Positions 49,916 to 64,000 are shown, counted from the stretch's first letter. The stretch is DNA of 64,000 bases from Candidatus Poribacteria bacterium (GCA_965208325.1 OZ242326.1:1248001-1312000), one strand, 5' to 3'. The notes: a model not told the origin generated them from the letters alone. Translations and numbers: made by a program.

Positions 49916-50698
49916 ATGGGTCAAGCAATTAACAAGTTTCGAGAGAAACTCAAGTCAGGAACAATCTGCCTCGGACCGGGCATCACGCTAACGGATCCAC
50001 TCGTTACCGATGCATTGGGCGACTCGGTAGATTTTTTTTGGATTGACTTAGAACATAGTTTAATGAGCCCTGAAGCGCTCAACGGGCACCTCTTGTCGGC
50101 GCGTGCTAGGGAAGTCGCTTCTCTAGTCCGTGTGAGCGGCAGCGCAACACCGTTTATCAAGCCGGTGCTGGATGCGGGCGCGGACGGGATAGTTGTGCCG
50201 CAGGTTAAGACTGCGGAAGAGGTGCGGCAAGTTATCCGCGATTGCCACTATCCTCCGCTAGGCACCCGCGGCTTCGGTCCGCGAGTGCCGTCCAATTACG
50301 GCCGTGAGGGCGGGAGTGAATACGTTGACCGCGCCAATGCAGACATCTTCGTTGCTGTCCAGATTGAAACTATGGGCGCGCTGGAAGCTATCGACGAGAT
50401 TGTAGCCATACCGGGAATAGATTCTTTAGTCATTGGTCCCCAGGACCTTTCGGGGGCGTTGGGACTGCTCGGCGATGTCGAACATCCCAAAGTCGTCGCC
50501 GCGATTGAAACGATAGTCAAGAAGGCGCGCGATGCCGGGCTGTTTGTCGGCGCGGGAATGGGAACAGACCCAGACTACGCTTACATTATGGCGAAACGCG
50601 GCGTGCAATGGCTTCAGATAGGCGGCGACTTTGGATACCTAATCGCTTACATGGACGAACTCAATTTGTCAGTGCGAAGCAGGATAGAGAACGCATAA
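49916..50698 (+). CDS. HpcH/HpaI-family aldolase
   Basis: WIDLEH, LDAGADGIVVPQV, YPPLGTRG, QIET, IGPQDLS. Confidence 0.92.
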   Translation: MGQAINKFREKLKSGTICLGPGITLTDPLVTDALGDSVDFFWIDLEHSLMSPEALNGHLLSARAREVASLVRVSGSATPFIKPVLDAGADGIVVPQVKTAEEVRQVIRDCHYPPLGTRGFGPRVPSNYGREGGSEYVDRANADIFVAVQIETMGALEAIDEIVAIPGIDSLVIGPQDLSGALGLLGDVEHPKVVAAIETIVKKARDAGLFVGAGMGTDPDYAYIMAKRGVQWLQIGGDFGYLIAYMDELNLSVRSRIENA

Positions 50699-50726
50699 GA
50701 TAAATAGGCACGGGAGGTATAGCACT

Positions 50727-51650
50727 ATGCTGATTGACGCACACGCGCACATTTTCCCCGAAGTGAACGGGATGAATGCAGCGGGCCCCACGCGCGGGTT
50801 AGGTTACGGGCGTGTCACGATTGGGGATCAACCGCTTCAACTATTTCCGCCCAACGGTGCGAAAACCGTAGTCACTCCCGAAATGCTTTTGGCATACATG
50901 GATTGGGGCGGAGTTGACAAGACGATGCTGCTTCAGGGTCCGTTTTACGGTGAGTGCGACCAATACGTCCTGGACGCCATGAATCGTTATCCGGACCGCT
51001 TTATGGGCGCTGCTTACCTCGATCCTTGGGCGTCGGATTGCCGTGATGCATTGGACAGAATTACCGCGTTATCGGGTTTCCGCGCCGTAAAAATGGAGTG
51101 TTCTGAAGCTTCAGGGCTGTGCGGGATTCACCCCGAGGGAAGGCTGGATGCGCCTGATATCATATGGATTTGGCATGAACTTGAGCGCCGCGATTGGGTA
51201 CTCGTTTTCGATTTGGGTGCGGTAGGCAGCCGTTCTTATCAGACAAGTGCGGTGCGCGGAATTGCGGAATCGCACCCCAAGCTTCGAATTGTAATTGCGC
51301 ATTTGGGGCAGCCGAACACACGAGTTGAGTCCGACCCGGAACTTTGGGGGTTGTGGCAGGAACAGATAGATTTGGGTACGTTACCCAATGTATGGTTTGA
51401 CAATTCCGCAGTGCCGGCTTACCTTGCGGATGAAGGCTACCCGTTCCCGAGTGCGGAGCGGTATATGCGTTTAGCAATCGACCGCATTGGCCCGTCAAAG
51501 CTGATGTGGGGTACGGATGTCCCGGGGCTATTATCACAAGCGACCTATCCGCAACTCGTGAAGTTAGCCGAACTGCACACGCATTTTCTATCCTCGGGCG
51601 AACAAGCTATGGTGCTCGGCGGTACGGCGATGCAGGTGTATGGGGGATGA
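50727..51650 (+). CDS. Amidohydrolase_2-family protein (possible lactonase)
   Basis: IDAHAH, IVIAHLG, LMWGTDVP. Confidence 0.88.
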   Translation: MLIDAHAHIFPEVNGMNAAGPTRGLGYGRVTIGDQPLQLFPPNGAKTVVTPEMLLAYMDWGGVDKTMLLQGPFYGECDQYVLDAMNRYPDRFMGAAYLDPWASDCRDALDRITALSGFRAVKMECSEASGLCGIHPEGRLDAPDIIWIWHELERRDWVLVFDLGAVGSRSYQTSAVRGIAESHPKLRIVIAHLGQPNTRVESDPELWGLWQEQIDLGTLPNVWFDNSAVPAYLADEGYPFPSAERYMRLAIDRIGPSKLMWGTDVPGLLSQATYPQLVKLAELHTHFLSSGEQAMVLGGTAMQVYGG

Positions 51651-52021
51651 GGTAATCTCAAAATAACCGCTTACATCAACAGACGATCTGTCCGGTAATT
51701 ATACGCTTTTATCGCCGAGTCAGGATGGTAATAACGGTGTCTAAGTAAGATTGCATCTAATCGCAATTGGAGAACCGTTATTTGATGGACGCAACATGAC
51801 GTGTAAGATAAACATTATAGGCGTTAAATCTTTTACGCACCAACAACGGTTCAAACTTGACATTTAACCGGGTAAAATTTGGTTTATTGATTGGGGCGTA
51901 GTTAGCGAGGGCGGGAAGTATCATTGGGACGGGCATCGTCCTGTGATTTATTATGACGCCGCTTTGATCCATGATGTGCTGTCGTTGAAATTGGATTAGT
52001 TTTACGCTATTCCATATAAAT

Positions 52022-52723
52022 TCAACTTGAATTCGCATTGGATGCAACACGCACTTGTTGCATGAGTACATTCAACCTCTGGCGATCTCGTATACCCTTC
52101 TCCGATTCAACGCCGGAACAGAGATCGATTCCAAAAGGACGGACGTTTTCAATCGCCGCCTTGACATTTTCAGGGCGAATTCCGCCCGCCAAGAACGCGG
52201 GAATTTTTGAATCGCCTATTAGTTGCCTTGCAAGTTTCCAATCGCTAGTCTTGCCGGTACCGCCAAATCGAGCTCTTCCCGCGCCGAAATCGACTGTGTC
52301 GAACAACAGGGCATCTGCCCCAGCGTCGACGTAAGTTTTTGCTTTTGCATTGATGGCACGAGCATCAAATTCTCTCCCGGCATCTGACGGCAAAAAAAGC
52401 GATTTCCAGACTTCGCACGACAGCACCCGTTTCAATCTAAAGATTTCATCGGGCGTTTCATCTCCAAGCAGTTGAAGCGCAAAAGGATTTATCTTGCCCA
52501 CGGCTTTTTCAATCCAGTCTACCGGCCGATTATATATCAGCACGACCGTTGAAATCTTGGTAAAACGTGCAATTTCGGCAGCGTGATAAACAGAAACAGA
52601 CCGCTCGGAAACAGACGCTTCAACTACTATCCCGGTGTAATCCGCCTCGGCCTCGGCTGCCATCTGCGCGTCTACAATATTGGTTGTACCGCATATTTTG
52701 ACTTTGCAGCGAGTATTTGTCAT
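52022..52723 (-). CDS. trpF: Phosphoribosylanthranilate isomerase
   Basis: KVKICG, LLFDT, GGTGKTSDW, FLAGGIRPENV, IDLCSGVE; start at Met 52723. Confidence 0.9.
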   Translation of the reverse strand: MTNTRCKVKICGTTNIVDAQMAAEAEADYTGIVVEASVSERSVSVYHAAEIARFTKISTVVLIYNRPVDWIEKAVGKINPFALQLLGDETPDEIFRLKRVLSCEVWKSLFLPSDAGREFDARAINAKAKTYVDAGADALLFDTVDFGAGRARFGGTGKTSDWKLARQLIGDSKIPAFLAGGIRPENVKAAIENVRPFGIDLCSGVESEKGIRDRQRLNVLMQQVRVASNANSS

Positions 52724-52905
52724 ACAATTCAAGCTCGCTTTCATTTTGCAGATTATTACTTTTATACAGCCGTTGCTAACGAAGCAGTATTTACCACCTT
52801 CGTTGCAGTGGCGCATTCCGCATCCACCGAAACTCCGATTCGTCACCTACCGGTACTCGCGACATCATTACTAGTAGGTTAAGGCTTTGCGCAAAATACT
52901 GGTGA

Positions 52906-53655
52906 TTACAGATTGAGCACATCACGCATGAATCGACAGCTCATGGTGATACTGTCGTTGGGTGCTTTGTCAGTCCGATCCTGCTCGACCATCAACCACT
53001 CCACGTCAACTTCGTCGACTGCCCGCATAATTGCCTCCCAATCGAGAATTCCGTGCCCAACTTCTCCGAAAGAGCCGTCAGGGTTCATATCTTTGAAGTG
53101 AAGATAGGCAACTCGATGCGCATACCGCATTAAAAACTCCGCGGGGTCGTCACCGCCGCTCTTTACCCAATACGTGTCGACACAAGCATGCACATATTGT
53201 GGATCTGTCGATTCATACAGTTTCACGATTCCGGTGGTCCCGCCAAAATCCTTAAATTCCCAATTGTGATTGTGGTAGCAAAGTTTTATTCCCGCATTGT
53301 TGCAACGTCGTCCAACCTCGTTGAAGACTTCAGCGGCGCGCTCATAGTCATCAAGCGAGTCGTTTCCACCAACACCGGAAACCATGAGGTAGCCACACCC
53401 CGCCGCCTCTGCGGCTTTAATCATGCCGTCAAAATGCTCAGGGCTGCCGTAACCGGTGTGAACGCCTGCTGTCACTAAATTGTGGGACGATAGCAGGCCA
53501 TTTACTTCCTCAATTGACCGTCCTCCTGCGGTCGGGTCTCCGGTTTCTATACCATCGTAGCCGGCAGCGGAAATTTCGGTGAGGACGCCTGGGAGATCGT
53601 TGCTTGGGCGATCGCCGTAGATTATGAAATGACAACCAACTTTATACTTGCTCAT
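52906..53655 (-). CDS. Sugar phosphate isomerase/epimerase (IolE-like TIM barrel)
   Basis: YHNHNWEF, DTYW, LHFKD, EVGHG, VEQD. Confidence 0.88.
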   Translation of the reverse strand: MSKYKVGCHFIIYGDRPSNDLPGVLTEISAAGYDGIETGDPTAGGRSIEEVNGLLSSHNLVTAGVHTGYGSPEHFDGMIKAAEAAGCGYLMVSGVGGNDSLDDYERAAEVFNEVGRRCNNAGIKLCYHNHNWEFKDFGGTTGIVKLYESTDPQYVHACVDTYWVKSGGDDPAEFLMRYAHRVAYLHFKDMNPDGSFGEVGHGILDWEAIMRAVDEVDVEWLMVEQDRTDKAPNDSITMSCRFMRDVLNL

Positions 53656-53931
53656 AGCACCCCTCCTCATGTTGTACGGAATTTCGCAGAAATTTTAATT
53701 GAAAACTTTAAGTGGCATCGACGCTCTCTAAACTGAAAGTGTTAAAATTTAGTATGCGTTGCGAATTTTACAAAATGACACACATTCGGTACGTCATTCT
53801 TTGCGCCCGTTATCAATCATTCAATTTCTTGCGAAAACGCAAATTACTAAAGCTGAATTATTCACTCAAGAAAGATACCATTTCAATATGCAATACCGCA
53901 AGAGATTTATGAGATTGCTAGTTTTTGTGTC

Positions 53932-53960
53932 TTGACAAGATTTCTTGACTGTGATAGAAT
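53932..53960 (+). promoter_or_regulatory. Sigma70-type promoter for the giant permease operon
   Basis: TTGACA-N17-TAGAAT with extended TG. Confidence 0.6.
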
Positions 53961-54075: not shown

Positions 54076-57000
54076 ATGACTGCGAGAAACTCGTTTGTCT
54101 GTGTTATAGGATTTTTCCTGCTCACCTTGATTTCCTCGCAGATGCTGTTAGCATCCGAAGGAGACCAATCCATCGGCCTTTCAGAAATTGCTGTTGAGAT
54201 TCGGGATCAGGTGGATATCGGCAGTATGCGAAAGGACATCGCACGGCTTTCTAGCCTATCGAGCCGCGTGACGGGTTATCCCGAAGCGGCTTCCGCCAGC
54301 AAATACATCTTCGACCGGTTTGCAGAGATAGGCTTGCAGAATGTCGAAAGCCGCGAATTCCCAATCACCGTTCCGATGGACCATGGCGACGGAACGCTTG
54401 CGGTGCTTGATGAACACGAGAATGCGATCGTGACGATTGATTTGCGGTCGGTTTGGCCAAACCTCGTCCGAACCTCACTACTTCCCACAGGAATTAAACA
54501 TCTGGTTGAAGGCGGAGAATCCTTAGAGGCAATTGCTCAATCCTACCGCGTTGACATTCAATCCATTCTTGATGACCCTCACAATAAGTTTCTCCAAGAT
54601 CAGGCGACCGACGGGCGGGACAACAACGGCGATGGATTGGTCGATGAACCCGGGGAATTCGCGTTGATAGACGGAAATAAGATATTTATACCTACCGGCG
54701 GATTAACCGCGCCGCTTTTTTACGGCGGCGGCGGCGAATTGGTAGACTTCAATGGAAAAGACATCGGCGGTTTTTGGTACGAGGTTCAGCCGGGTGATAC
54801 CCTGCGAGACATTGCCCATCGCTTTCGCGTCGGCGTCGGGAGCATCACCGATGATGTACTAAACGGTCATCTTCAGAAAACCGAGGACGGTATTGATAAC
54901 AACGAGAATGGTCAAATTGATGAATACGGGGAAATCCCACTCCTCGCGGATATTTTGCATTGGGATACAGACGGCATTGATAACGACGCGGACGGCTTTA
55001 TTGATGAGCAACCCGGCGGAGAGACGGACGGCATAGACAACAACAACGACGGACGTATTGACGAGGATGGCGAGTTCATCGCTGCTTACGAATCGAGCAT
55101 CTTTATACCTCGCGGCAGCGTAGTATTGATCGATTTCAACTCCAGTACCAAATGGATTAACGCAGCAATGCTCGGCGCGAAGGCGGTAGTTTTCATTGAA
55201 CCGGAAACCACAATTCGCGGTGAAGCAGAGAATAAGTTCCTGACTGTTCCCGCCAACATACCGCGGTTTTGGATTTCTCGGACGGATGCTGAAAAACTGT
55301 TAACGATGCTTGGTGAAACTTCCGACCCTACCTCATCCGGCGGCGAACAACATAAGGAGGCCAGGGACGTCACTGTCCGTCTCAGTGCAACGATGACTTG
55401 GGAACGACGAATTGGGCAGAATATCCGCGGTTTTCTTGATGGAGGCGATCCAGCACTCAAGGATGAACTTGTCGTAATCACGGCGTATTATGACTCCATG
55501 TCGGTTGTTCCTGCGATTGCGCCAGGCGCTGATCCTACCGGTGGGATCGCTGCGCTTCTCGAATTAGCGCGCATTTTTAGCAAAGCAGAATTCCGGCCGG
55601 GGCGTTCAATACTGTTCGTTGCTGCGGACGCACATTTTCAGGGGTTGGCAGGAATGCGAGCGTTCATGGAGGGGATTGGCCAAGATGTTGTGGGGCGCGA
55701 AGCCGATTCACCCGGAACGCCAACCATGCGCGGACTGCGACGGGGTTTAGCAGCAGACCTGTTTGAATTTAAAGAACTCGGCCGCAAGCTGTTGCTGTCT
55801 ATAGATAGGAACGTATTGGTGGATTTGCCTCCGAATTTCTTTTACGAAGTCCATCAACTTGACGCTGCCCTCGATTCACTCCAAATTACATTAGGCGATC
55901 TTGAAGGGACTCGAGGCCGTGTCGAATGGTTAAGGGACGCTCAAAGGGATTATAAAGAAAAACAGAAGAAGAAACTAGAAACTACTAAAAAACGCGAAAA
56001 ACAGGGTTTTACCCAAGAGGAGCATTCCCGCCTCGAAATAAACCTGGCTAAGTACAAAAAGGATGCGTTACAGACTACCCAATTTTTGCGATCTGTAGTC
56101 AGACGTGTGGATAATTTACGTTCTCAAGCCTTGGAAGAGTCTCGAAAGGCGCAACGGGATCTGATTGAGAATATCGCGTTGCCGATGGCGCGGCTTGATG
56201 AGTGGGCGATTACCAAGCTAGAGGCCGATCTGGCGGCGAAAAACATCGGTGGCAACTACGACCGAACGGCTGACAGTTCCTACCTTCAGCCGAATGCGGA
56301 CGAAGACGGAAATTACCACCTACAGGTACCGTCCGATTTGGTTGGCACGCCTTTGGCAGAAGCAGTGATTCGGCTTTCCGGCCATTTAGAGGATTGGGAA
56401 CTCAAAGACCGCCGAAAGTTTGCGCTTCAATATGCTCAAGAACAACTCCTGGATCGGCATCTCGATTTTCACGGCTTGGAACAGATAAAAGAAGCCCGCA
56501 CAATTGTACATCGCGCGACTAGAGCCTTAAGCGAGTACATTGCCGAAGAGGAACAGGTCTTATTCCGCACGCTCCAAAAGATACCTTCCGATTCAGACTC
56601 GGCGTCACGCATCAAAACCGCCATTAACAGTTTACGAAGGGATGCTGCATATGCTCCGGATGATATAGACACGATTGTCGGTCCATTCCTTGGCGAATCC
56701 AGTCTCGACCGATTCAAGACCATTCAAAAACAGCTTCGTCAAAAATTGGCGGAAATCGAGACCGCCGATGCCGGCGCAGTAGATCGAGAATCGCATGCCA
56801 TTTTCATTGAAGAACTGACTAAAGATAAACAAGCCATCTTCGAAACCGCCATGCGAAATGCAAGACTTGAACGGCAGCGAATTGAGTCGCTTTTGGAATT
56901 GCAACGCCACGCGTCGTTGAACCGACCGTATCTTGAGGAAGAATTACTGGTGTTGAGCCACTACCTTCCAGCCGACGAAGTTGACACGGCGATAGAGGTA

Positions 57001-60000
57001 CGCGCCCAGGTTGTCGCACAACTGGAGCAACAACGTCTGCTTCGGCTAGTTAAACAGCGTGCGAAGAACGATGTTGTAGAACTTCAGAATATGTTAAACC
57101 GCTTAGACGAACTCGACCGAGATCTTCCAGAAGAGATGAAGACGCTGCTTCGCGATAACATGCTAACGCTGCGAAATGCCAGATTCCGTAACATCCAAAA
57201 ACGGGTGCAGGTGATTGCACGAATTAGCAAGTCGGAATATGACCGGAAAGTTACCAACATCGAGCAGGCAATTGCCCTACAAGACCTTTTCAACCGCTAC
57301 TATACCTCGTTGTTTGTTTCTATCGACTTATCTACCCAAAATGACAAATTTGGTGTGTTCAACAAAGGTTGGTTCTACGACCAGCAACCTGAATTTGTGC
57401 TGCGGCGCGAGTTTGCTTTCATCGGCAACAAACTCGCCGAGTATGCCGAGGATGTAGATTTTGGCGTCCGTATTAACAACCTTTGGACGTTTACGGACGA
57501 TCAGATTCGGCAGGCGGTGATGAACAGTCAATGGGAAATCGCATCTGGCATTGAGTCCAAACAGGCGATAGAGGGCAAATCGTTGGAGACGCTGATTGAC
57601 GAACACTACACGACGTTAGTCAAACTTTCCGGCGTTTCGCGTTTAATGAAGATGCAGTTTGAACAGATGAGAGACCGAGGCGAACCGTCTGAAGATATGC
57701 TGAAGGATATGGACTATATCCGTAAGGAGGTCGAGCGATTCATCCGAAACGATCAGCGCGAAGCCCGAAAAGAACGCAAAAACAGTATTCGCCTCTTCAA
57801 TCGGCTGCCTGCAATGCTTGCCCTTCGGAAAGTGAAACCGTCCGATTTGACCGAGGAGGAAATTGATGACATCAAGACTCTTATAGACATTGTCGGGTTA
57901 GGAGGGGCTACCAACTTCGTTAACGCTATTTCTGCTTCAGGCGGAAAAACATGGACAACGTATATCCCCGGCAAAATTGCATTTGACAGCGAAGTCGCGA
58001 CGCTAGTCGGTAAAACGGGGATTGCATTTGCCACCATAGATGATGCGCGGGTGCTCACGGACACGCCTTTAGATACAATTGATAAAATGGATTTGAGGGA
58101 AGACGGTAATTTACACAGACAGGCGAAAACGCTCGCAGCAATTCTAATTCAGGCGATGCGGGACCCGAAGATGCCGACCGCGGCGCGTGTAGGCAACTTC
58201 TATTGTAATCTGTTTGGCGACGTTGTAGAGTACGATGCACGCGAAAGCGCTTTGCCGAACAAACCGGTGCCGCATCCAATTCTTACGCTGCGGCGTAAAA
58301 ACAAGACAATGATGGGTGTTCGCGGCGATCTCTTTACGATGGGAGACAACAAAGGCGTGTTCGAAGTGGTCGGATTGGCGATGGAAGGGCGCGCCATTCA
58401 ACGGCGCGGCGGCACGCAAGAGGTCGAAGCGTATATCCTTGATTCCGATTCGGGAGATATTTCCTACGCACCCGATTTGGGCAACTTTGGCGCAGAACTA
58501 CTACCGAATAAGGTGCCTATCACCACACGCCGGCGCGGTTGCCGCATTGTGGTTTTTCCGTGCGTTTCCACCACCATCTACGACTTGGTCGACCAGCGGT
58601 ATTTGCGGACACTTCGCGAATTGAACGTCTATGATGCGCGAAGCGACAGTCCTCCGGAGAAATACGGCGTTTCCAAGCCGTGGCAACAGCCGATGGTCTC
58701 GGCGACAGAACCGATTGCCTTGGTCTATTCTGAACCGAATTCCCGCATCAAAATCGGCATGGCATACGGCCAAATTGGCAAACGGCTGCTGCTGATTAAA
58801 GCAGGCAAGAGCGGCGCCAAAAACCCGACCCTTTACACTGGAGAAGGGTTCGTCGTGCAGGAAAACGGCTCTGTGCGCCTCACTCCGTACGTCGTCGTGC
58901 GCGACATGTGGTGGCTGGATGAAAACCGCACCAGCCTTTACAAACGGTTCGGTATTAGCAGTGATCGACTCGACAAACTACACCTTTTTTCGAACGAACA
59001 TTTAGAACAGGCAGAAGTTGCTTTGGATAAAAAGGACTATTCCATGGCGATGAAACTGGCCCGCGGGGCATGGGGCTACGAATCGCGTGCATATCCAGAT
59101 GTTAAAAAGACCGGCAACGATGTGGTTAACGGTGTTATGTTCTATCTCGCACTGCTAATCCCGTTTGCGTACTTTATGGAACGCCTAATTTTCGCATTTC
59201 CGGATGTTCACAAACAGATTCTCGGTGTGTTTGCCATCTTTCTCGTAGTGTTCTTTTTCCTCTCGCAAGCACATCCAGCCTTCCAGATTACCACGACGCC
59301 AGTTATTATACTAATTGCCTTCGTTGTGTTAGCATTAACTGTGATCGTGATAAGTATCATCGTCCGGAAATTTGAGGAGCAGTTAGAACAGATTAAGCAG
59401 GAACGGTCGAAGGTTTATAAAGCGGATGTTGGCCGCCTTGCCGCGTCCGCCGCAGCCTTTAGCCTTGGCATCTCCAATATGCGCAAGCGGAAAGGCCGCA
59501 CTCTCCTTACATGCGCCACGCTGGTAATTTTAACATTCACGGTAATCTCCTTCACATCGGTTCGAACCTTTATGCAACCCAACAGCACCTCTTTGCCTTC
59601 TGTAACGCCCAAATACACGGGGATGCTGATTCGAGATCAATACTGGATTCCATTGGAGGAACCGGTAATTACGTCCGTAACGAACGATATGCGTAAAACG
59701 CGGATTGGCGAAAATGAACTCCGACTCCTGTTGAAAAAGAAAGGGAAGTCGCCCGCTGAAGTTGATTCGCTGCTTGCCTCGGCTAAAATTGATGGGGATA
59801 ATGGTACTGGGGCAGAGGTCAGGTCCTCGACTGCGGCCAGTGGGCTGAAGGATCAAGCGTATATCACGGTGCACAATGTTGTCGCGCCGCGGGCATGGTA
59901 TCAGTCTTCGGGTACCGGCGATCAATCGTTCGTGCAGTTGACGCGTATTGAGAATTCCAAAGATCCTGTGCCGCCGAAAGATCCATTGACCGATGAACCG

Positions 60001-61512
60001 CTAAGTTTTGCGGCAAACATGCTGGTGGGAATGAGCCCTGATGAGCCGGGTGTCACCGGTATTGACCGTTACCTCCAGTACGGCAAATGGTTTGACCCTG
60101 CAGACGAAGCGGAATGGCCGACCCAATGGCCGTATGTGTGCGTATTGCCGAAAGGTATGGCGGATCTCTTGGAAATCAGCGAATCTGATATGGGGAAAGC
60201 CACTATCTCAGTTTATGGTGCCAAATTCACTGTAACCGGTGTGTTGGGCATTGGGTTTAAGGATTTGACAGATAATGACGGCGAAGAACTCACTCCTGTT
60301 GATTATCAATTGATGCATCAGCAGCAATCGCGCGGGGGCGAGGGAGAAGAAACGCTTGAGGGCGAGTTACAGAAGTATCTCCACCTTACGCCGGATAGCA
60401 TCGCAGTTTTGCCATACGAGGTAATAATTAATCAAGGCGGAACACTGCGATCGGTCGCGGTTAATATGAACCCTCAAGAAGGCGATCCGCCGTTCCTGAC
60501 CGGCGTTGATAAACTAGATTTAATAATGGCACCCCTAATGAGCCGCATTGCACTCGACTTTTTCGTCGGCCGGAACAAAGATACTTACCTCTACAGCTCA
60601 ATTGGGATGACTTCTTTCTCCGGCATGGGGAACTTATTTGTGCCAATACTTATCGCGTCACTAATCGTACTGAACACAATGCTCGGCGCCGTGTATGAAA
60701 GAGTTCGGGAAATTGGTATTTACAGCTCTGTCGGGCTTGCGCCGGTGCATATCGCTTTTCTGTTTCTTGCAGAGGCGTGTGTGTACGCGATTGTGGGGGC
60801 AGTGTTGGGTTACTTACTCGGTCAAGTCGTGGCTACTCTCCTAGTGAATTTTGGCTGGCTTGCTGGATTGACCCTCAATTACTCATCAATGTCCACAGTG
60901 GTGGCAACCATTATCGTTATGTTAGTGGTCATAAGCAGCACACTTTACCCCGCTGTAAAAGCCGGACGGATGGCTGTGCCCGACATTGAACGGAAGTGGA
61001 AATTACCTGAACCGGAAGGCGACGAGTGGCACTTTGACCTTCCCTTCACTGTTCTATCCGAGGAATCACTTGGTTTGAACGTATTTATGCGGGACTATTT
61101 TGAAGCCCACTCCGACGAATCTGCGAGCGATTTCTATACTGACCAAATCTCTTTTAACCGGTCAACCGAGGAGATTGAAGGCAGGGAAAAAGAAACGTAC
61201 GCGATAAGCATGATGGCATGGGTAGCCCCTTACGATTTAGGGGTCGGTCAATCCATTCGATTTGTGACTTCTCCGGTTGGCGGCGAAGAAGAGGATCTCT
61301 ACAACATCACCCTTGATGTGCACCGCGAAAGCGGCGAAATTGCCTCTTGGAAACGCGTCAACCGGCGTTTCTTGAACCTAATTCGCAAGCAACTGTTGGT
61401 CTGGCGAACCTTCAGCGCCGATGTTCGCGGCGAGTTCCATGAACGCGGTCGGCACGATCGCCAATTCACGGATGCTCCTAACCTTGAACTAGCACCACAG
61501 CCGGCGGACTGA
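54076..61512 (+). CDS. Giant membrane protein: LysM x2, DGxDN repeats, M28/PA-like region, helical insertions and FtsX/MacB-type permease
   Basis: Signal peptide; SRVTGYP; LysM YEVQPGDTLRDIAHRF; VVITAYYDS, PGAD; SNMRKRKGRTLLT; NTMLGAVYERVREIGIYSSVG; start at Met 54076 after GGAG. Confidence 0.85.
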   Translation: MTARNSFVCVIGFFLLTLISSQMLLASEGDQSIGLSEIAVEIRDQVDIGSMRKDIARLSSLSSRVTGYPEAASASKYIFDRFAEIGLQNVESREFPITVPMDHGDGTLAVLDEHENAIVTIDLRSVWPNLVRTSLLPTGIKHLVEGGESLEAIAQSYRVDIQSILDDPHNKFLQDQATDGRDNNGDGLVDEPGEFALIDGNKIFIPTGGLTAPLFYGGGGELVDFNGKDIGGFWYEVQPGDTLRDIAHRFRVGVGSITDDVLNGHLQKTEDGIDNNENGQIDEYGEIPLLADILHWDTDGIDNDADGFIDEQPGGETDGIDNNNDGRIDEDGEFIAAYESSIFIPRGSVVLIDFNSSTKWINAAMLGAKAVVFIEPETTIRGEAENKFLTVPANIPRFWISRTDAEKLLTMLGETSDPTSSGGEQHKEARDVTVRLSATMTWERRIGQNIRGFLDGGDPALKDELVVITAYYDSMSVVPAIAPGADPTGGIAALLELARIFSKAEFRPGRSILFVAADAHFQGLAGMRAFMEGIGQDVVGREADSPGTPTMRGLRRGLAADLFEFKELGRKLLLSIDRNVLVDLPPNFFYEVHQLDAALDSLQITLGDLEGTRGRVEWLRDAQRDYKEKQKKKLETTKKREKQGFTQEEHSRLEINLAKYKKDALQTTQFLRSVVRRVDNLRSQALEESRKAQRDLIENIALPMARLDEWAITKLEADLAAKNIGGNYDRTADSSYLQPNADEDGNYHLQVPSDLVGTPLAEAVIRLSGHLEDWELKDRRKFALQYAQEQLLDRHLDFHGLEQIKEARTIVHRATRALSEYIAEEEQVLFRTLQKIPSDSDSASRIKTAINSLRRDAAYAPDDIDTIVGPFLGESSLDRFKTIQKQLRQKLAEIETADAGAVDRESHAIFIEELTKDKQAIFETAMRNARLERQRIESLLELQRHASLNRPYLEEELLVLSHYLPADEVDTAIEVRAQVVAQLEQQRLLRLVKQRAKNDVVELQNMLNRLDELDRDLPEEMKTLLRDNMLTLRNARFRNIQKRVQVIARISKSEYDRKVTNIEQAIALQDLFNRYYTSLFVSIDLSTQNDKFGVFNKGWFYDQQPEFVLRREFAFIGNKLAEYAEDVDFGVRINNLWTFTDDQIRQAVMNSQWEIASGIESKQAIEGKSLETLIDEHYTTLVKLSGVSRLMKMQFEQMRDRGEPSEDMLKDMDYIRKEVERFIRNDQREARKERKNSIRLFNRLPAMLALRKVKPSDLTEEEIDDIKTLIDIVGLGGATNFVNAISASGGKTWTTYIPGKIAFDSEVATLVGKTGIAFATIDDARVLTDTPLDTIDKMDLREDGNLHRQAKTLAAILIQAMRDPKMPTAARVGNFYCNLFGDVVEYDARESALPNKPVPHPILTLRRKNKTMMGVRGDLFTMGDNKGVFEVVGLAMEGRAIQRRGGTQEVEAYILDSDSGDISYAPDLGNFGAELLPNKVPITTRRRGCRIVVFPCVSTTIYDLVDQRYLRTLRELNVYDARSDSPPEKYGVSKPWQQPMVSATEPIALVYSEPNSRIKIGMAYGQIGKRLLLIKAGKSGAKNPTLYTGEGFVVQENGSVRLTPYVVVRDMWWLDENRTSLYKRFGISSDRLDKLHLFSNEHLEQAEVALDKKDYSMAMKLARGAWGYESRAYPDVKKTGNDVVNGVMFYLALLIPFAYFMERLIFAFPDVHKQILGVFAIFLVVFFFLSQAHPAFQITTTPVIILIAFVVLALTVIVISIIVRKFEEQLEQIKQERSKVYKADVGRLAASAAAFSLGISNMRKRKGRTLLTCATLVILTFTVISFTSVRTFMQPNSTSLPSVTPKYTGMLIRDQYWIPLEEPVITSVTNDMRKTRIGENELRLLLKKKGKSPAEVDSLLASAKIDGDNGTGAEVRSSTAASGLKDQAYITVHNVVAPRAWYQSSGTGDQSFVQLTRIENSKDPVPPKDPLTDEPLSFAANMLVGMSPDEPGVTGIDRYLQYGKWFDPADEAEWPTQWPYVCVLPKGMADLLEISESDMGKATISVYGAKFTVTGVLGIGFKDLTDNDGEELTPVDYQLMHQQQSRGGEGEETLEGELQKYLHLTPDSIAVLPYEVIINQGGTLRSVAVNMNPQEGDPPFLTGVDKLDLIMAPLMSRIALDFFVGRNKDTYLYSSIGMTSFSGMGNLFVPILIASLIVLNTMLGAVYERVREIGIYSSVGLAPVHIAFLFLAEACVYAIVGAVLGYLLGQVVATLLVNFGWLAGLTLNYSSMSTVVATIIVMLVVISSTLYPAVKAGRMAVPDIERKWKLPEPEGDEWHFDLPFTVLSEESLGLNVFMRDYFEAHSDESASDFYTDQISFNRSTEEIEGREKETYAISMMAWVAPYDLGVGQSIRFVTSPVGGEEEDLYNITLDVHRESGEIASWKRVNRRFLNLIRKQLLVWRTFSADVRGEFHERGRHDRQFTDAPNLELAPQPAD

Positions 61513-61609
61513 TGAATTGATGAGTCGGAAAAGCACCGGTAGAATTCCGCGAATTCCTTAACGAGAAAGTTGCGGCATTTAGCACATTACGCGAAGGGAA
61601 ACAATACGC

Positions 61610-61789
61610 ATGGTAAACTTTGGAGAAAAGTTAGCAAGCTTTTTTATCATCATCGGCGTAATTCTTTGGGTCATATCTATCTTCTTTTTGGGTGGGCGAT
61701 GGCAGCCGCAGGTGCTTTCGGCCGCAATTTTGGTTGTCGCCATCTTTATCGCCCACATCTGGGAGGAACTCTTTCAGCAAAAAAAATGA
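61610..61789 (+). CDS. Small two-TM membrane protein (59 aa, absent from ORF track)
   Basis: MVNFGEKLASFFIIIGVILWVISIFFLGGRWQPQVLSAAILVVAIFIAHIWEELFQQKK*; AAGGGA upstream. Confidence 0.65.
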   Translation: MVNFGEKLASFFIIIGVILWVISIFFLGGRWQPQVLSAAILVVAIFIAHIWEELFQQKK

Positions 61790-61863
61790 CCGTGCGTAAT
61801 ACGAACGCGTAGCACTCTTGACTTTCGCACATTTCGTCATGTGCTACGAAAGGAGAATTAAAT

Positions 61864-63852
61864 TTGGCGAGAGAGAGAATATCGCAAGCCGAGGAGTGGC
61901 AGGCTTGGGCGCAGCGTTACGATATGGAGGGCGGGATTCGGACTTTTGAATCCGGATTAACTCTCAAAGTCTTTTTAGGGGCGCTTTTTGTAGGGCTGTT
62001 GATGATGCCGGGCTCAATCTACCTGCAATTAGTGTCGGGCCAAACGGGCGCGGGCGCCGCGCCGTGGGTAGCGGTCATTCTATTTACAGAATTGGCGCGC
62101 CGCTCATTTACGACCGCCAGACGACAGGAGTTATTCTTACTGCTTGGACTTACTGGTGCGGCGGTCGGTTCGGGGCTTCAGTACCGCGGCTTCATCTGGT
62201 ACGCCTATTTTGTGCAAACGCCTCAAGCAGAGTCCTATGAAATAGCCGACAAGATTCCTTTTTGGGTCACGCCATCACCGGATTCGATTGCTATTGCCGA
62301 AAGATCGCTTTTGCACATGGATTGGTGGACGCCTATTTGGATCTTTTTGGTCATGCGGCTGCTTGGGACAATCCGACATATCAGCGCAGGTTATTTTTTG
62401 TTCCGGCTCACTGCTGACCTAGAACGACTTCCGTATCCACTAGCGCCTATTGAAGCACAAGGAGCGACGGCTCTGGCAGAGACCACAGGCAGGGCGGAAA
62501 CGTGGCGTTGGCGTGTGTTTTCTATCGGTTCCATGGCGGGGTTACTGTGGGGTTTTCTCTATATCGGTATTCCTTCACTTACTGGCGTGATGATGTCAGA
62601 GCCGATTGAGATTCTAAAAATCCCATTTATTGATTTTACGCCTAGTATTGAAGGTTTTGCGCCGACAGGAGTGTTTGCGCTCTCCACCGATTTTGGACAA
62701 ATTCTCTTTGGGTTTGTGCTGCCATTTCCAATCGTGATGACTGAATTCATCGCGGCAATGTTTACCCAGTTTTTCCTGAATCCGCAACTCTACCAACATG
62801 AAATTTTGTATCAATGGCGTGCGGGTTTGGATGTCCGCGGCGTGGGTTTGTTCAATGGCTTGGATTTCTGGATTAGCGCCAATATGGGTAAAGCTTTCAG
62901 TTTCGCAATCGTTGGACTTGCTGCATCTGTTCCCATGCTAATGAAATTTCGGTCTGCTAGACAGGAAACTACCGGTACGCGCGGGTCGCTTCAAACACCA
63001 CCGGGACGCGGAGATTTTCCGCTCTGGCTAATGGCGGGATTGTGGCTTATCGGCATGATCGGTTTTGTGTGGATGGTGCATTGGATGGTACCGAATTTTC
63101 CGATGAAATTTTTGCTCGGCTTTGCTTTTATATACACCCCGCTAAATTCCTACGTCACTGCGCGTACATTTGGGGTATTGGGGCGGGATCTCTTTGAAAT
63201 CCCCTATATCCACGAGACTACCTTTATCTTGAGCCGCTACGAGGAAATCGACATTTGGTTCGTTGAATTACCAAATGAGGACTACGGCCGCGGCACACAA
63301 GGTTGGCGTGTGTGCGAACTGACGGGAACTACGTTTACAAGTAACATTGCAGCCCATCTATTGATTATGCCGATCCTACTAATTTCTGGAATTCTGGTAT
63401 GGCATTTCATTTGGAAAATTGCGCCAATTCCTTCAGCGCAATATCCTTTCGCTCAAACTTGGTGGCCAATTTACGCAACCAACGAATGTCTGTGGAAGAC
63501 CTCACTTCGAGATGGAAGCAGTCAGATGTTGCAAGCCATCAGAGGCGACTACGTTGCGACCGGATTGACCGGCTCGCTTGCTATCTACGGCCTCCTCTGG
63601 TTAGCAAAGATGCCTAGTATGTGGTTTTACGGCATCGTGGGCGGTATCGGCGCCGACCCAGGGATGATGATTCCACGGCTAATCGGGGCAATAATAGGCC
63701 GCTTTTATATGATCAAGCGATTCGGGTTGAAACGGTGGTTTATGTTTAATCCAGTTTTGGCAGCCGGTTTTACCTGCGGTGTTGGCCTTATTGGAATGGG
63801 AACGGTGGCTATCGCATTGGTTTCCAAAGCAGTCATTGTTAAACCGTTCTGA
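61864..63852 (+). CDS. OPT-superfamily-like polytopic membrane protein (putative peptide transporter)
   Basis: Many TM segments; AAPWVAVILFTELARR, DLERLPYPLAP, IAPIPSAQYP; AGGAG RBS before TTG. Confidence 0.75.
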   Translation: MARERISQAEEWQAWAQRYDMEGGIRTFESGLTLKVFLGALFVGLLMMPGSIYLQLVSGQTGAGAAPWVAVILFTELARRSFTTARRQELFLLLGLTGAAVGSGLQYRGFIWYAYFVQTPQAESYEIADKIPFWVTPSPDSIAIAERSLLHMDWWTPIWIFLVMRLLGTIRHISAGYFLFRLTADLERLPYPLAPIEAQGATALAETTGRAETWRWRVFSIGSMAGLLWGFLYIGIPSLTGVMMSEPIEILKIPFIDFTPSIEGFAPTGVFALSTDFGQILFGFVLPFPIVMTEFIAAMFTQFFLNPQLYQHEILYQWRAGLDVRGVGLFNGLDFWISANMGKAFSFAIVGLAASVPMLMKFRSARQETTGTRGSLQTPPGRGDFPLWLMAGLWLIGMIGFVWMVHWMVPNFPMKFLLGFAFIYTPLNSYVTARTFGVLGRDLFEIPYIHETTFILSRYEEIDIWFVELPNEDYGRGTQGWRVCELTGTTFTSNIAAHLLIMPILLISGILVWHFIWKIAPIPSAQYPFAQTWWPIYATNECLWKTSLRDGSSQMLQAIRGDYVATGLTGSLAIYGLLWLAKMPSMWFYGIVGGIGADPGMMIPRLIGAIIGRFYMIKRFGLKRWFMFNPVLAAGFTCGVGLIGMGTVAIALVSKAVIVKPF

Positions 63853-64000
63853 TGGGCGGAGACTGCGTGAGTAGACAGGACAGGTGTGCGGATTAACATT
63901 TTTTAACTAATCCACGGGCAATGTAGGTATGTCAGGCGGGGATTTCACGCCGCGCGTATGACGGTATGGAATGGACAAATTTTGGTTGGGCGGGTATCAC

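Follow-up and report, generated by a model that had tools for sequence, protein, structure and literature searches.

ABC (ATP-binding cassette) systems of type VII serve efflux, lipoprotein release, the control of wall hydrolases and the extraction of heme or lipids. Their described members (MacAB-TolC, LolCDE, YbbAP-TesA, YtrEF, HrtBA and BceAB) share an FtsX core of four transmembrane (TM) helices, whose periplasmic domain sits between TM1 and TM2, and an ATPase of the LolD/MacB class. A stretch of 64,000 nucleotides from a Candidatus Poribacteria bacterium (GCA_965208325.1, OZ242326.1:1248001-1312000), hereafter the window, ends within an operon that carries such a core, with genes in the order giant, microprotein, permease of predicted oligopeptide transporter (OPT) fold, 310-aa protein, PqqD-like protein and LolD/MacB-class ATPase (Table 1). 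Compared with the known type VII systems, the Poribacterial giant adds three TM helices ahead of the core, an N-terminal portion of about 1650 residues in cis and a cytoplasmic tail of its own; its gene is locked to that of the OPT-fold permease, and the operon contains no membrane-fusion protein, LolA-type carrier or lipase partner.

Several other described systems resemble the operon in part. FtsEX with EnvC, PcsB or RipC shares with it an ABC motor coupled to a long-helical module in the periplasm that binds the wall and is either silent in catalysis or regulated; in the giant, however, the apparently silent module is M28/PA-like rather than LytM or CHAP, and it is fused instead of separate. 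Both the giant and the operon ATPase remain below the FtsX and FtsE equivalog models of FtsEX proper, and we know of no counterpart of the OPT-fold permease or of the PqqD-like protein in FtsEX systems. In the TRAP (tripartite ATP-independent periplasmic) and TTT (tripartite tricarboxylate transporter) systems, an extracytoplasmic binding module serves a permease of secondary-transporter fold without an ATPase; their likeness to the operon would be one of function and not of homology, and the binding module of the operon would be driven by an ATPase. Inactive M28/PA-type proteins such as Nicalin, to which the transferrin receptor also belongs, use an M28-like fold as a binding or scaffold module without a di-zinc site, as the giant may do. 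Unlike theirs, the M28-like domain of the giant is joined to an ABC permease in one chain, interrupted by a large helix-prone insertion and marked by conserved substitutes of its own (Tyr/Phe, His, Asp). Finally, the OPT/Yellow-Stripe-like transporters (PF03169; HvYS1, 7wst and 7wsr) are comparable in size to the 662-aa protein of the operon and share its predicted fold over nearly the whole length; the accessible portions of the literature found describe no ABC partner for known OPT proteins, whereas the 662-aa gene lies beside an ABC permease.

That the operon unites a type VII permease bearing a head, an OPT-fold permease, accessory proteins and an ATPase in one set of six genes is very probable; among type VII ABC systems it is new in its in-cis head and in the class of its partner. 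An earlier note on the window had proposed an uncharacterised envelope system; the operon is indeed conserved and inherited together, and no account of its architecture was found in the portions of the literature searched, subscription journals lying outside their coverage. The three open reading frames (ORFs) which that note had placed in the window, for a protein of some 2480 aa, a two-TM protein of 59 aa and an OPT-like polytopic protein, are genuine and co-ordered (2478, 59 and 662 aa).

The C-terminal part of the giant is a type VII (MacB/FtsX-type) ABC permease. Pfam FtsX matches residues 2189-2299 with 46.2 bits (cut-off 25.5) and MacB_PCD scores 21.4 bits, under its cut-off of 27. With an AlphaFold2 (AF2) model of residues 1280-2478 (predicted local distance difference test, pLDDT, 67.9), Foldseek retrieved MacB (5gko, E 7.9e-10) and also LolCDE, HrtBA and YtrEF. 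VIA-align of the same model gave Z 17.5 for YtrEF, 16.7 for 5xu1 (pneumococcal Spr0694-0695-type), 16.1 for MacB and, for FtsEX, 14.5 (8tzj) and 12.6 (8hd0); the MacB periplasmic domain 3ftj matched with Z 12.1 and a root-mean-square deviation (rmsd) of 3.9 over 188 aligned residues. By AF2 model, Foldseek and VIA-align, the four-TM core with its periplasmic domain between TM1 and TM2 matches the solved type VII members. All NCBIfam equivalog scores of the giant are far under cut-off, the FtsX model reaching 19.4 bits against 255, so that the protein does not classify as FtsEX proper.

A Kyte-Doolittle scan of the giant marked hydrophobic segments at 5-28, in the three TMs at 1682-1768, at 1807-1829 (TM1) and at 2180-2297 (TM2-4), and the three-TM block is among the parts best conserved between phyla (46-65% identity). 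By the topology of MacB, residues from about 30 to 1680 and 1830-2179 would be extracytoplasmic and the last 180 residues cytoplasmic. The signal peptide, TM block, MacB-like periplasmic region and FtsX-type permease read by the earlier note are all recovered, the first as a signal-peptide-like hydrophobic segment with putative cleavage and the others by agreement of hydropathy, Pfam FtsX and fold matches. Its long helical insertions are likewise in keeping with the composition of residues 601-1300 (33-50% E/K/R/D/Q, few Gly or Pro), which fits long helices. The C-terminal domain yielded no convincing relative, the PDB sequence search returning designed proteins only and the Atlas leads being weak; matches to Bet v 1-like and KA1 domains (VIA-align Z ~8.3) lie in the noise range and were discarded.

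The extracytoplasmic portion of about 1650 aa that precedes this permease comprises an M28/PA-like head from which the canonical catalytic residues are missing as a set, together with a beta domain and a helical stalk. Pfam Peptidase_M28 matches residues 450-532 with 34.3 bits (cut-off 21.3), and PA scores 20.4 bits, under its cut-off of 23.9. The head of a homologue matched YwaD (6hc6, E 6.9e-12) among PDB sequences, and also Nicalin (E 1.6e-4). M28 fold homology is therefore present, but the co-catalytic zinc-ligand set and the catalytic Glu are not matched, one ligand position being unmapped. In the alignment of the homologue to YwaD, the first zinc-ligand His is replaced by Tyr, the Glu-Glu pair by His-Phe and the last His by Asp. 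Over 24 aligned family members the first of these positions is Tyr, Phe or Met, the catalytic-Glu position is an invariant His and an Asp-Thr-Pro-x-Asp motif is invariant; the Glu-Glu pair reads (Ala/Gly)-His plus a variable residue in the fusion family. The last M28 motif of the giant, in which the zinc-ligand His is Asp, lies C-terminal to residue 1280, and the stretch 541-1280 is therefore an insertion inside the M28-like fold.

With substitutes at three places of the M28 site (Tyr/Phe for the His, x-His for the Glu-Glu pair and Asp for the last His, in 24 of 24 aligned family members or in the PDB alignment), catalytic processing by this region is unlikely, and the processing role given to it in the earlier note is not retained. 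The conserved substitutes suggest a remodelled, functional site instead of decay, which would make the head a clean case of an enzyme fold turned into a non-catalytic module with conserved residues of its own. The beta domain (model residues 98-217) has a borderline match to the transthyretin-like domains of carboxypeptidase D (Z 8.9, rmsd 2.2, 79 aligned).

The 662-aa protein is, by its predicted fold rather than by Pfam sequence membership, an OPT/Yellow-Stripe protein. Its AF2 model (pLDDT 78.8, predicted template-modelling score 0.80) matched barley HvYS1 in Foldseek (7wst_A, E 2.3e-11, TM-score 0.64/0.69, 675 columns, 14% identity); the only two matches at E <= 1e-3 were both HvYS1 (7wst, 7wsr), the next, unrelated one standing at E 0.02. 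Pfam OPT is matched by 2 of 16 homologues (best E 6.3e-7), and precomputed PF03169 annotations occur on 4 of the 120 homologues listed. The OPT-like character is thus upheld by fold, with Pfam OPT silent on the protein itself. Membership of DUF6785 is not: Pfam gave no match, hhalign of A1 against the DUF6785-bearing P0357 returned a probability of 0.1, and BLASTP of P0357 and P0347 against the 662-aa protein found nothing significant. No longer form of the 662-aa protein carrying a fusion turned up when such forms were looked for, a weak line of evidence, and a complex model of the protein with the three-TM block plus TM1 of the giant scored 0.25 against a mark of 0.32 and is not counted either way. 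In genus g5 (G007 etc.; L012:9650-13745) the OPT-fold gene is tandemly duplicated, 15 of 16 genomes having two copies that are 78-84% identical to the query; the giant is single copy there.

Between the giant and the OPT-fold gene lies the microprotein, with two TM segments by hydropathy scan and conserved GRWQ and AHxWEE motifs. It was matched in 42 of 47 Poribacterial loci, always in this position, and went undetected by tblastn in five deeper Poribacterial loci (L061, L063-L066) and in the 31 loci from other phyla.

Downstream of the OPT-fold gene the window edge cuts the operon, which is why no ATPase is visible in the window, as had rightly been remarked: the ABC ATPase gene starts 1338 nt beyond the window end and directly abuts the PqqD-like gene. 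The 310-aa protein matched no Pfam or NCBIfam family, and its profile drew no PDB sequence below E 0.4; every homologue that bears a name is called 'hypothetical protein', and the Atlas offered hypothetical clusters only. The PqqD-like protein matches Pfam PqqD with 47.4 bits (cut-off 23.4) and the NCBIfam PqqD model with 34.1 bits, under the cut-off of 46.

The operon ATPase has readable Walker A, signature and Walker B motifs, and its top NCBIfam models are LolD, MacB, YbbA, DevA and FtsE, all under their equivalog cut-offs. From its sequence and from gene order it is taken as the putative cognate LolD/MacB/FtsE-class ATPase of the permease. It is also the best match of its genome to the FtsE model (209.2 bits, next 208.6), under the cut-off of 264.85, and neither FtsX nor FtsE passes the NCBIfam cut-offs in this genome; the silence of the FtsX_Gneg model means little, because that model passes in only 1 of 14 control genomes. 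At L013:14238-14518 (G032), after the ATPase gene, two tandem tblastn matches to the last 40 ATPase residues (62-65% identity) look like repeated C-terminal fragments of it.

A second FtsX/ATPase pair was also recorded. In Armatimonadota-type loci a short FtsX-only gene (227-270 aa) adjoins the ATPase, and this genome encodes a 41% identical counterpart about 76 kb upstream of the window (G000:C1:1171220-1172648), beside a second ATPase that is 61% identical to the operon ATPase. The pair occurs in 40 of 41 relatives, including the two genomes without the operon (G020 and G036).

Within an order of Poribacteria the operon is near-universal, 65-99% conserved and mostly single copy, so that it probably matters to the envelope or to the nutrition of these uncultured bacteria. 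The 662-aa protein occurs in 39 of 41 relatives with 74-99% identity; its named homologues come from Candidatus Poribacteria, and a 99% identical locus lies on a Poribacteria chromosome. The giant was likewise found in 39 of the 41, the same two genomes being without both it and the OPT-fold gene. In tblastn searches all six proteins are colinear in 10/10 loci from four families, and in each of them the giant forms a single full-length high-scoring segment pair of 65-91% identity, two loci being clipped N-terminally by the fetched range. The fusion is thus genuine, and the assembly chimera that had been considered for it is rejected. Six-gene colinearity extends to 47 Poribacterial loci wherever the locus has room, save for the microprotein in five. 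In the two exceptional genomes, G020 (96% complete, 2 contigs) and G036 (80% complete), the giant, the OPT-fold gene, the 310-aa protein and an operon-type ATPase were not found, either because the whole operon was lost together or because the assembled sequence has a gap there; from their joint absence the operon behaves as one unit.

Variation was noted in some Poribacterial loci. In family f3 (G026, G029, G032, G035, G038) a second full-length giant paralogue occurs elsewhere in the genome (e.g. G038:C1:4485091-4487673), with open frames of ~2560 aa and 75-81% identity over the last 788 aa. Spacing of 1-3 kb separates the end of the giant from the microprotein or OPT-fold gene in L047, L052, L053, L025, L026, L030 and L031, and the ATPase lies 2-6 kb further downstream than usual in L037, L050, L051, L054, L055 and L058; these extra distances are insertions into the operon.

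The distribution of the system outside the Poribacteria was assessed by a pattern scan of one genome per species, using an alignment of 662-aa homologues, which confirmed at least 516 relatives; 78 loci were kept, 47 of them Poribacterial and 31 from other phyla, including Armatimonadota, Abditibacteriota, Planctomycetota, WS1, Zipacnadia, Latescibacterota and Gemmatimonadota. In 22 of the 31 non-Poribacterial loci the gene directly upstream of that for the OPT-fold protein encodes a fusion (~1500-1900 aa) of the giant's family, so that synteny of the two is found across phyla; eight loci with full flank have no fusion beside the OPT-fold gene, and one is without flank. In 5/5 genomes without adjacency, three fusion paralogues each are present elsewhere in the genome. 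The LolD/MacB-type ATPase for which a survey, also beyond position 64000, had been advised is the last gene of the operon, and it recurs, with 69-72% identity, in 9 of the 31 loci; the 310-aa protein is found in eight of the 31 and the PqqD-like protein in four.

The fusion family itself is large: a profile of giant residues 1280-2478 drew 1641 representative clusters at E <= 1e-30 among 1.84 billion, and most of the best 150 of these 1641 are 1450-1900 aa long. Public records name its members only as 'hypothetical protein', 'M28 family peptidase' or 'DUF6785 family protein'. In the member P0357 (2120 aa) a complete DUF6785 + DUF6784 polytopic protein (E 9e-120 and 3e-29) is fused to the C-terminus, a form found at full length in several assemblies.

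Set against this wider family, the Poribacterial giant carries several additions. Pfam LysM matches residues 235-258 with 28.6 bits (cut-off 20.9), spanning only positions 1-24 of the 43 of the profile, and a second LysM-like stretch at residues 143-166 scores 20.9 bits, under a cut-off of 29.3. The M28/PA and LysM domains first assigned to the head are thus upheld for M28 and, over part of the profile, for one LysM, but PA and the second LysM stay under cut-off. Each LysM-like module is broken by D-rich loops ahead of a plausible last strand; the two are interrupted by four loops of the form DGxDNxxDGxxDE in all (window 54484-55110, giant aa 179-330), which we take to be reminiscent of the loops through which thrombospondin type 3 or dockerin repeats bind calcium.

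Of the two LysM inserts, the second occurs in 8/8 Poribacterial sequences and the first in 7/8, and each in 0/16 sequences of other phyla. Glycan or cell-wall binding is therefore a lineage add-on and not the core of the machine, contrary to the earlier proposal. A total of 712 giant residues lie in segments gapped in at least 14 of the 16 sequences of other phyla; these Poribacteria-only segments comprise the two LysM inserts (137-205 and 231-345) and, in the expansion, residues 572-607, 644-800, 811-914, 965-1002, 1126-1148 and 1158-1271, and also an insert at 1878-1933 in the periplasmic domain between TM1 and TM2. The LysM inserts, ~470 aa of the helical expansion and the microprotein were detected in Poribacteria only, and the identity of the expansion among Poribacteria is 34-67% (tblastn). 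Other giant members of the fusion family, P0268, P0277 and P0279 (2769-3053 aa), carry Big_5 Ig-like domains before the M28-like head, from which it appears that lineages decorated the head with different surface-binding modules.

We read the operon as the Poribacterial form of a widespread, uncharacterised envelope module for the capture and import of a ligand, an account that is the likeliest of those weighed and, taken whole, plausible if a little short of probable. According to the accessible portions of the cited papers, in type VII ABC systems cytoplasmic ATP turnover moves periplasmic domains with no transport through the permease (PMC12646458, PMC11491553, PMC8333309), and OPT proteins take up peptides or metal chelates by proton-coupled import (PMC12831333, PMC9131082). 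By analogy, ATP binding and hydrolysis in the cytoplasm would be passed through the FtsX core into motion of the periplasmic head. The head would bind a peptide-like ligand without cleaving it and would present it to the neighbouring OPT-fold permease, or gate its entry there, to be carried over the inner membrane. In Poribacteria, the two LysM inserts and the long helical extension might place the head at the peptidoglycan, and the ligand could plausibly be a wall-derived peptide. This capture-and-import mechanism is put forward tentatively, as a possibility. Its boldest form is a hybrid transporter in which the type VII ABC unit is physically coupled to the OPT permease, a dead-peptidase 'hand' captures the ligand and loads or gates the permease and, in Poribacteria, LysM and the helical arm harvest peptidoglycan-derived peptides; we regard this form as unlikely, but if true it would amount to an ATP-powered machine for capturing and recycling wall peptides.

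A number of observations weigh against capture and import. Searched up to E 1, the 662-aa protein does not match Pfam OPT (PF03169, TC 2.A.67). Only ancestry and conserved substitutes suggest that the head would bind a ligand, and the natural fusion that offers an analogy for contact between giant and OPT-fold permease involves DUF6785, in which no sequence similarity to the 662-aa protein was detected. G020 (96% complete) is without the operon, which is either dispensable there or missing from the assembly. Also, genes of division and wall growth occur near some of the non-Poribacterial clusters: SPOR and FtsZ downstream in L091, L096 and L097, MreB nearby in L094 and, in L083, L085 and L089, FtsW/RodA inside the cluster, between the OPT-fold gene and that for the 310-aa protein.

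These neighbours fit as well or better with a controller of wall remodelling akin to FtsEX-EnvC, in which the motor would move a catalytically silent head anchored in the wall (LysM, long helices), and this head would activate a separate hydrolase or synthase of peptidoglycan, or position it, in growth or division, with the OPT-fold protein recycling released stem peptides or serving as a scaffold only. EnvC carries a degenerate LytM domain, and the pseudo-enzyme head of the giant is akin to it. FtsEX and FtsEX-EnvC are among the type VII fold matches, the LysM inserts of the Poribacterial proteins would suit wall anchoring, and the genome is without FtsX or FtsE over NCBIfam cut-offs, with the operon ATPase as its best FtsE-model match. 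However, LysM is missing from 16/16 non-Poribacterial members, the three paralogues per genome of some lineages suit uptake better than division, the hints from gene neighbourhoods stem from a small number of related lineages, FtsX_Gneg is a narrow model and the operon encodes no hydrolase partner. Such a role for the operon, the main rival to capture and import, is unlikely.

An export or extraction machine is improbable. In such a machine the PqqD-like and 310-aa proteins would handle a product in the cytoplasm, peptide-like or lipid-linked, which would cross the inner membrane through the OPT-fold protein, and the MacB-type motor and head would extract it or pass it on, much as MacAB, LolCDE or YbbAP-TesA expel or extract on the periplasmic side. 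As far as the accessible portions of two papers go, characterised type VII systems do expel or extract rather than import (PMC12646458, PMC8333309). The PqqD-like and orphan proteins are kept with the ATPase in Poribacteria and in four Armatimonadota-type loci, and the NCBIfam matches of the ATPase, all below cut-off, include the exporters DevA and DarD and bacteriocin exporters. Against this, what is conserved in the cluster includes neither a biosynthetic enzyme or a precursor gene nor a membrane-fusion protein or an outer-membrane factor, and OPT proteins are importers in the accessible portions of PMC12831333 and PMC9131082.

A cluster for a ribosomally synthesized and post-translationally modified peptide, with the PqqD-like protein as leader-peptide recognition element, the 59-aa ORF as precursor and the ABC system as exporter plus protease, is rejected as highly improbable: a PqqD domain over the Pfam cut-off, weakly similar to lasso-peptide and pyrroloquinoline quinone chaperones, and a small ORF would speak for it, but the 59-aa product is a conserved two-TM membrane protein and no leader-core peptide, it is undetected outside Poribacteria where the PqqD-like gene is present, no maturase, be it a radical SAM, a cyclase, a YcaO or another, is conserved in the operon or related loci, and the order-wide, mostly single-copy conservation is unlike secondary metabolism.

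The lock of an OPT-fold permease on a fusion family of this size would add a new job to the type VII ABC systems, and with it a new kind of pairing of a primary motor with a secondary-transporter fold. To our knowledge OPT proteins are almost unstudied in bacteria, and the operon gives them a genetic context.

The near-consensus promoter reported ahead of the giant gene was recovered, at 11/12 matches; promoter-like sites with at least 9/12 matches number two in the 600-nt stretch, against 1.5 expected from shuffles. A GGAG lies 8 nt 5' of the ATG at 54076. A longer frame of the giant from a TTG at 53932 was rejected, its start falling within the -35 box.

Table 1. Features of the operon and of the giant protein. 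Positions are counted from the first letter of the window; residue numbers are those of the giant.
Feature	Position	Strand	Basis or remarks
Sigma-70-type promoter-like site, TTGACA-17-TAGAAT	53932..53960	+	11/12 matches; upstream TG extension
Giant gene	54076..61512	+	2478 aa; M28/PA-like head, helical expansion, three extra TMs, MacB/FtsX-type permease, cytoplasmic tail domain
Signal-peptide-like N-terminus, aa 1-27	54076..54156	+	Hydrophobic segment 5-28, Kyte-Doolittle; putative cleavage
M28/PA-like head, N-terminal part, aa 30-540, remodelled metal site	54163..55695	+	Pfam, YwaD/Nicalin matches, 24-sequence alignment
Poribacteria-specific insert 1, aa 137-205	54484..54690	+	LysM-like module split by one D-rich loop DGxDNxxDGxxDE
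Poribacteria-specific insert 2, aa 231-345	54766..55110	+	LysM over Pfam cut-off, split by three D-rich loops
Charged helix-prone expansion, aa 541-1280	55696..57915	+	Composition; ~470 aa Poribacteria-only
aa 1281-1681	57916..59118	+	Last M28 motif, beta-rich domain, helical stalk
Three extra TM helices, aa 1682-1768	59119..59379	+	Precede MacB core; hydropathy, AF2 model
MacB/FtsX-type core	59494..60966	+	TM1, periplasmic domain aa 1830-2179, TM2-4
Cytoplasmic C-terminal alpha/beta domain, aa 2300-2478, family-specific	60973..61509	+	
Two-TM microprotein gene, 59 aa	61610..61789	+	ORF, hydropathy scan
OPT/Yellow-Stripe-fold permease gene, 662 aa	61864..63852	+	ORF, AF2 model, Foldseek
Orphan-family cytoplasmic protein gene, 310 aa	63966..64000 in window, extrapolated end 64898 (L002:966-1898)	+	
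PqqD-like protein gene, 139 aa	extrapolated 64918-65337 (L002:1918-2337), past window end		Pfam
LolD/MacB/FtsE-class ABC ATPase gene, 271 aa	extrapolated 65338-66153 (L002:2338-3153), past window end		

The genes flanking the operon on both sides look unrelated to it. Upstream (window 49916-53670) lie genes for an HpcH/HpaI aldolase, an amidohydrolase, TrpF and a divergent xylose-isomerase-like TIM-barrel protein, and downstream (L002:3984-13789) those for an aldehyde dehydrogenase, a DUF3857/transglutaminase-like protein, EF-G and a TonB-dependent receptor. In a Zipacnadia locus (L089:8712-10434), genes for a DarT-like ADP-ribosyltransferase and, after it, a Macro-domain protein are found downstream of the cluster, by Pfam a toxin-antitoxin pair of DarTG type.

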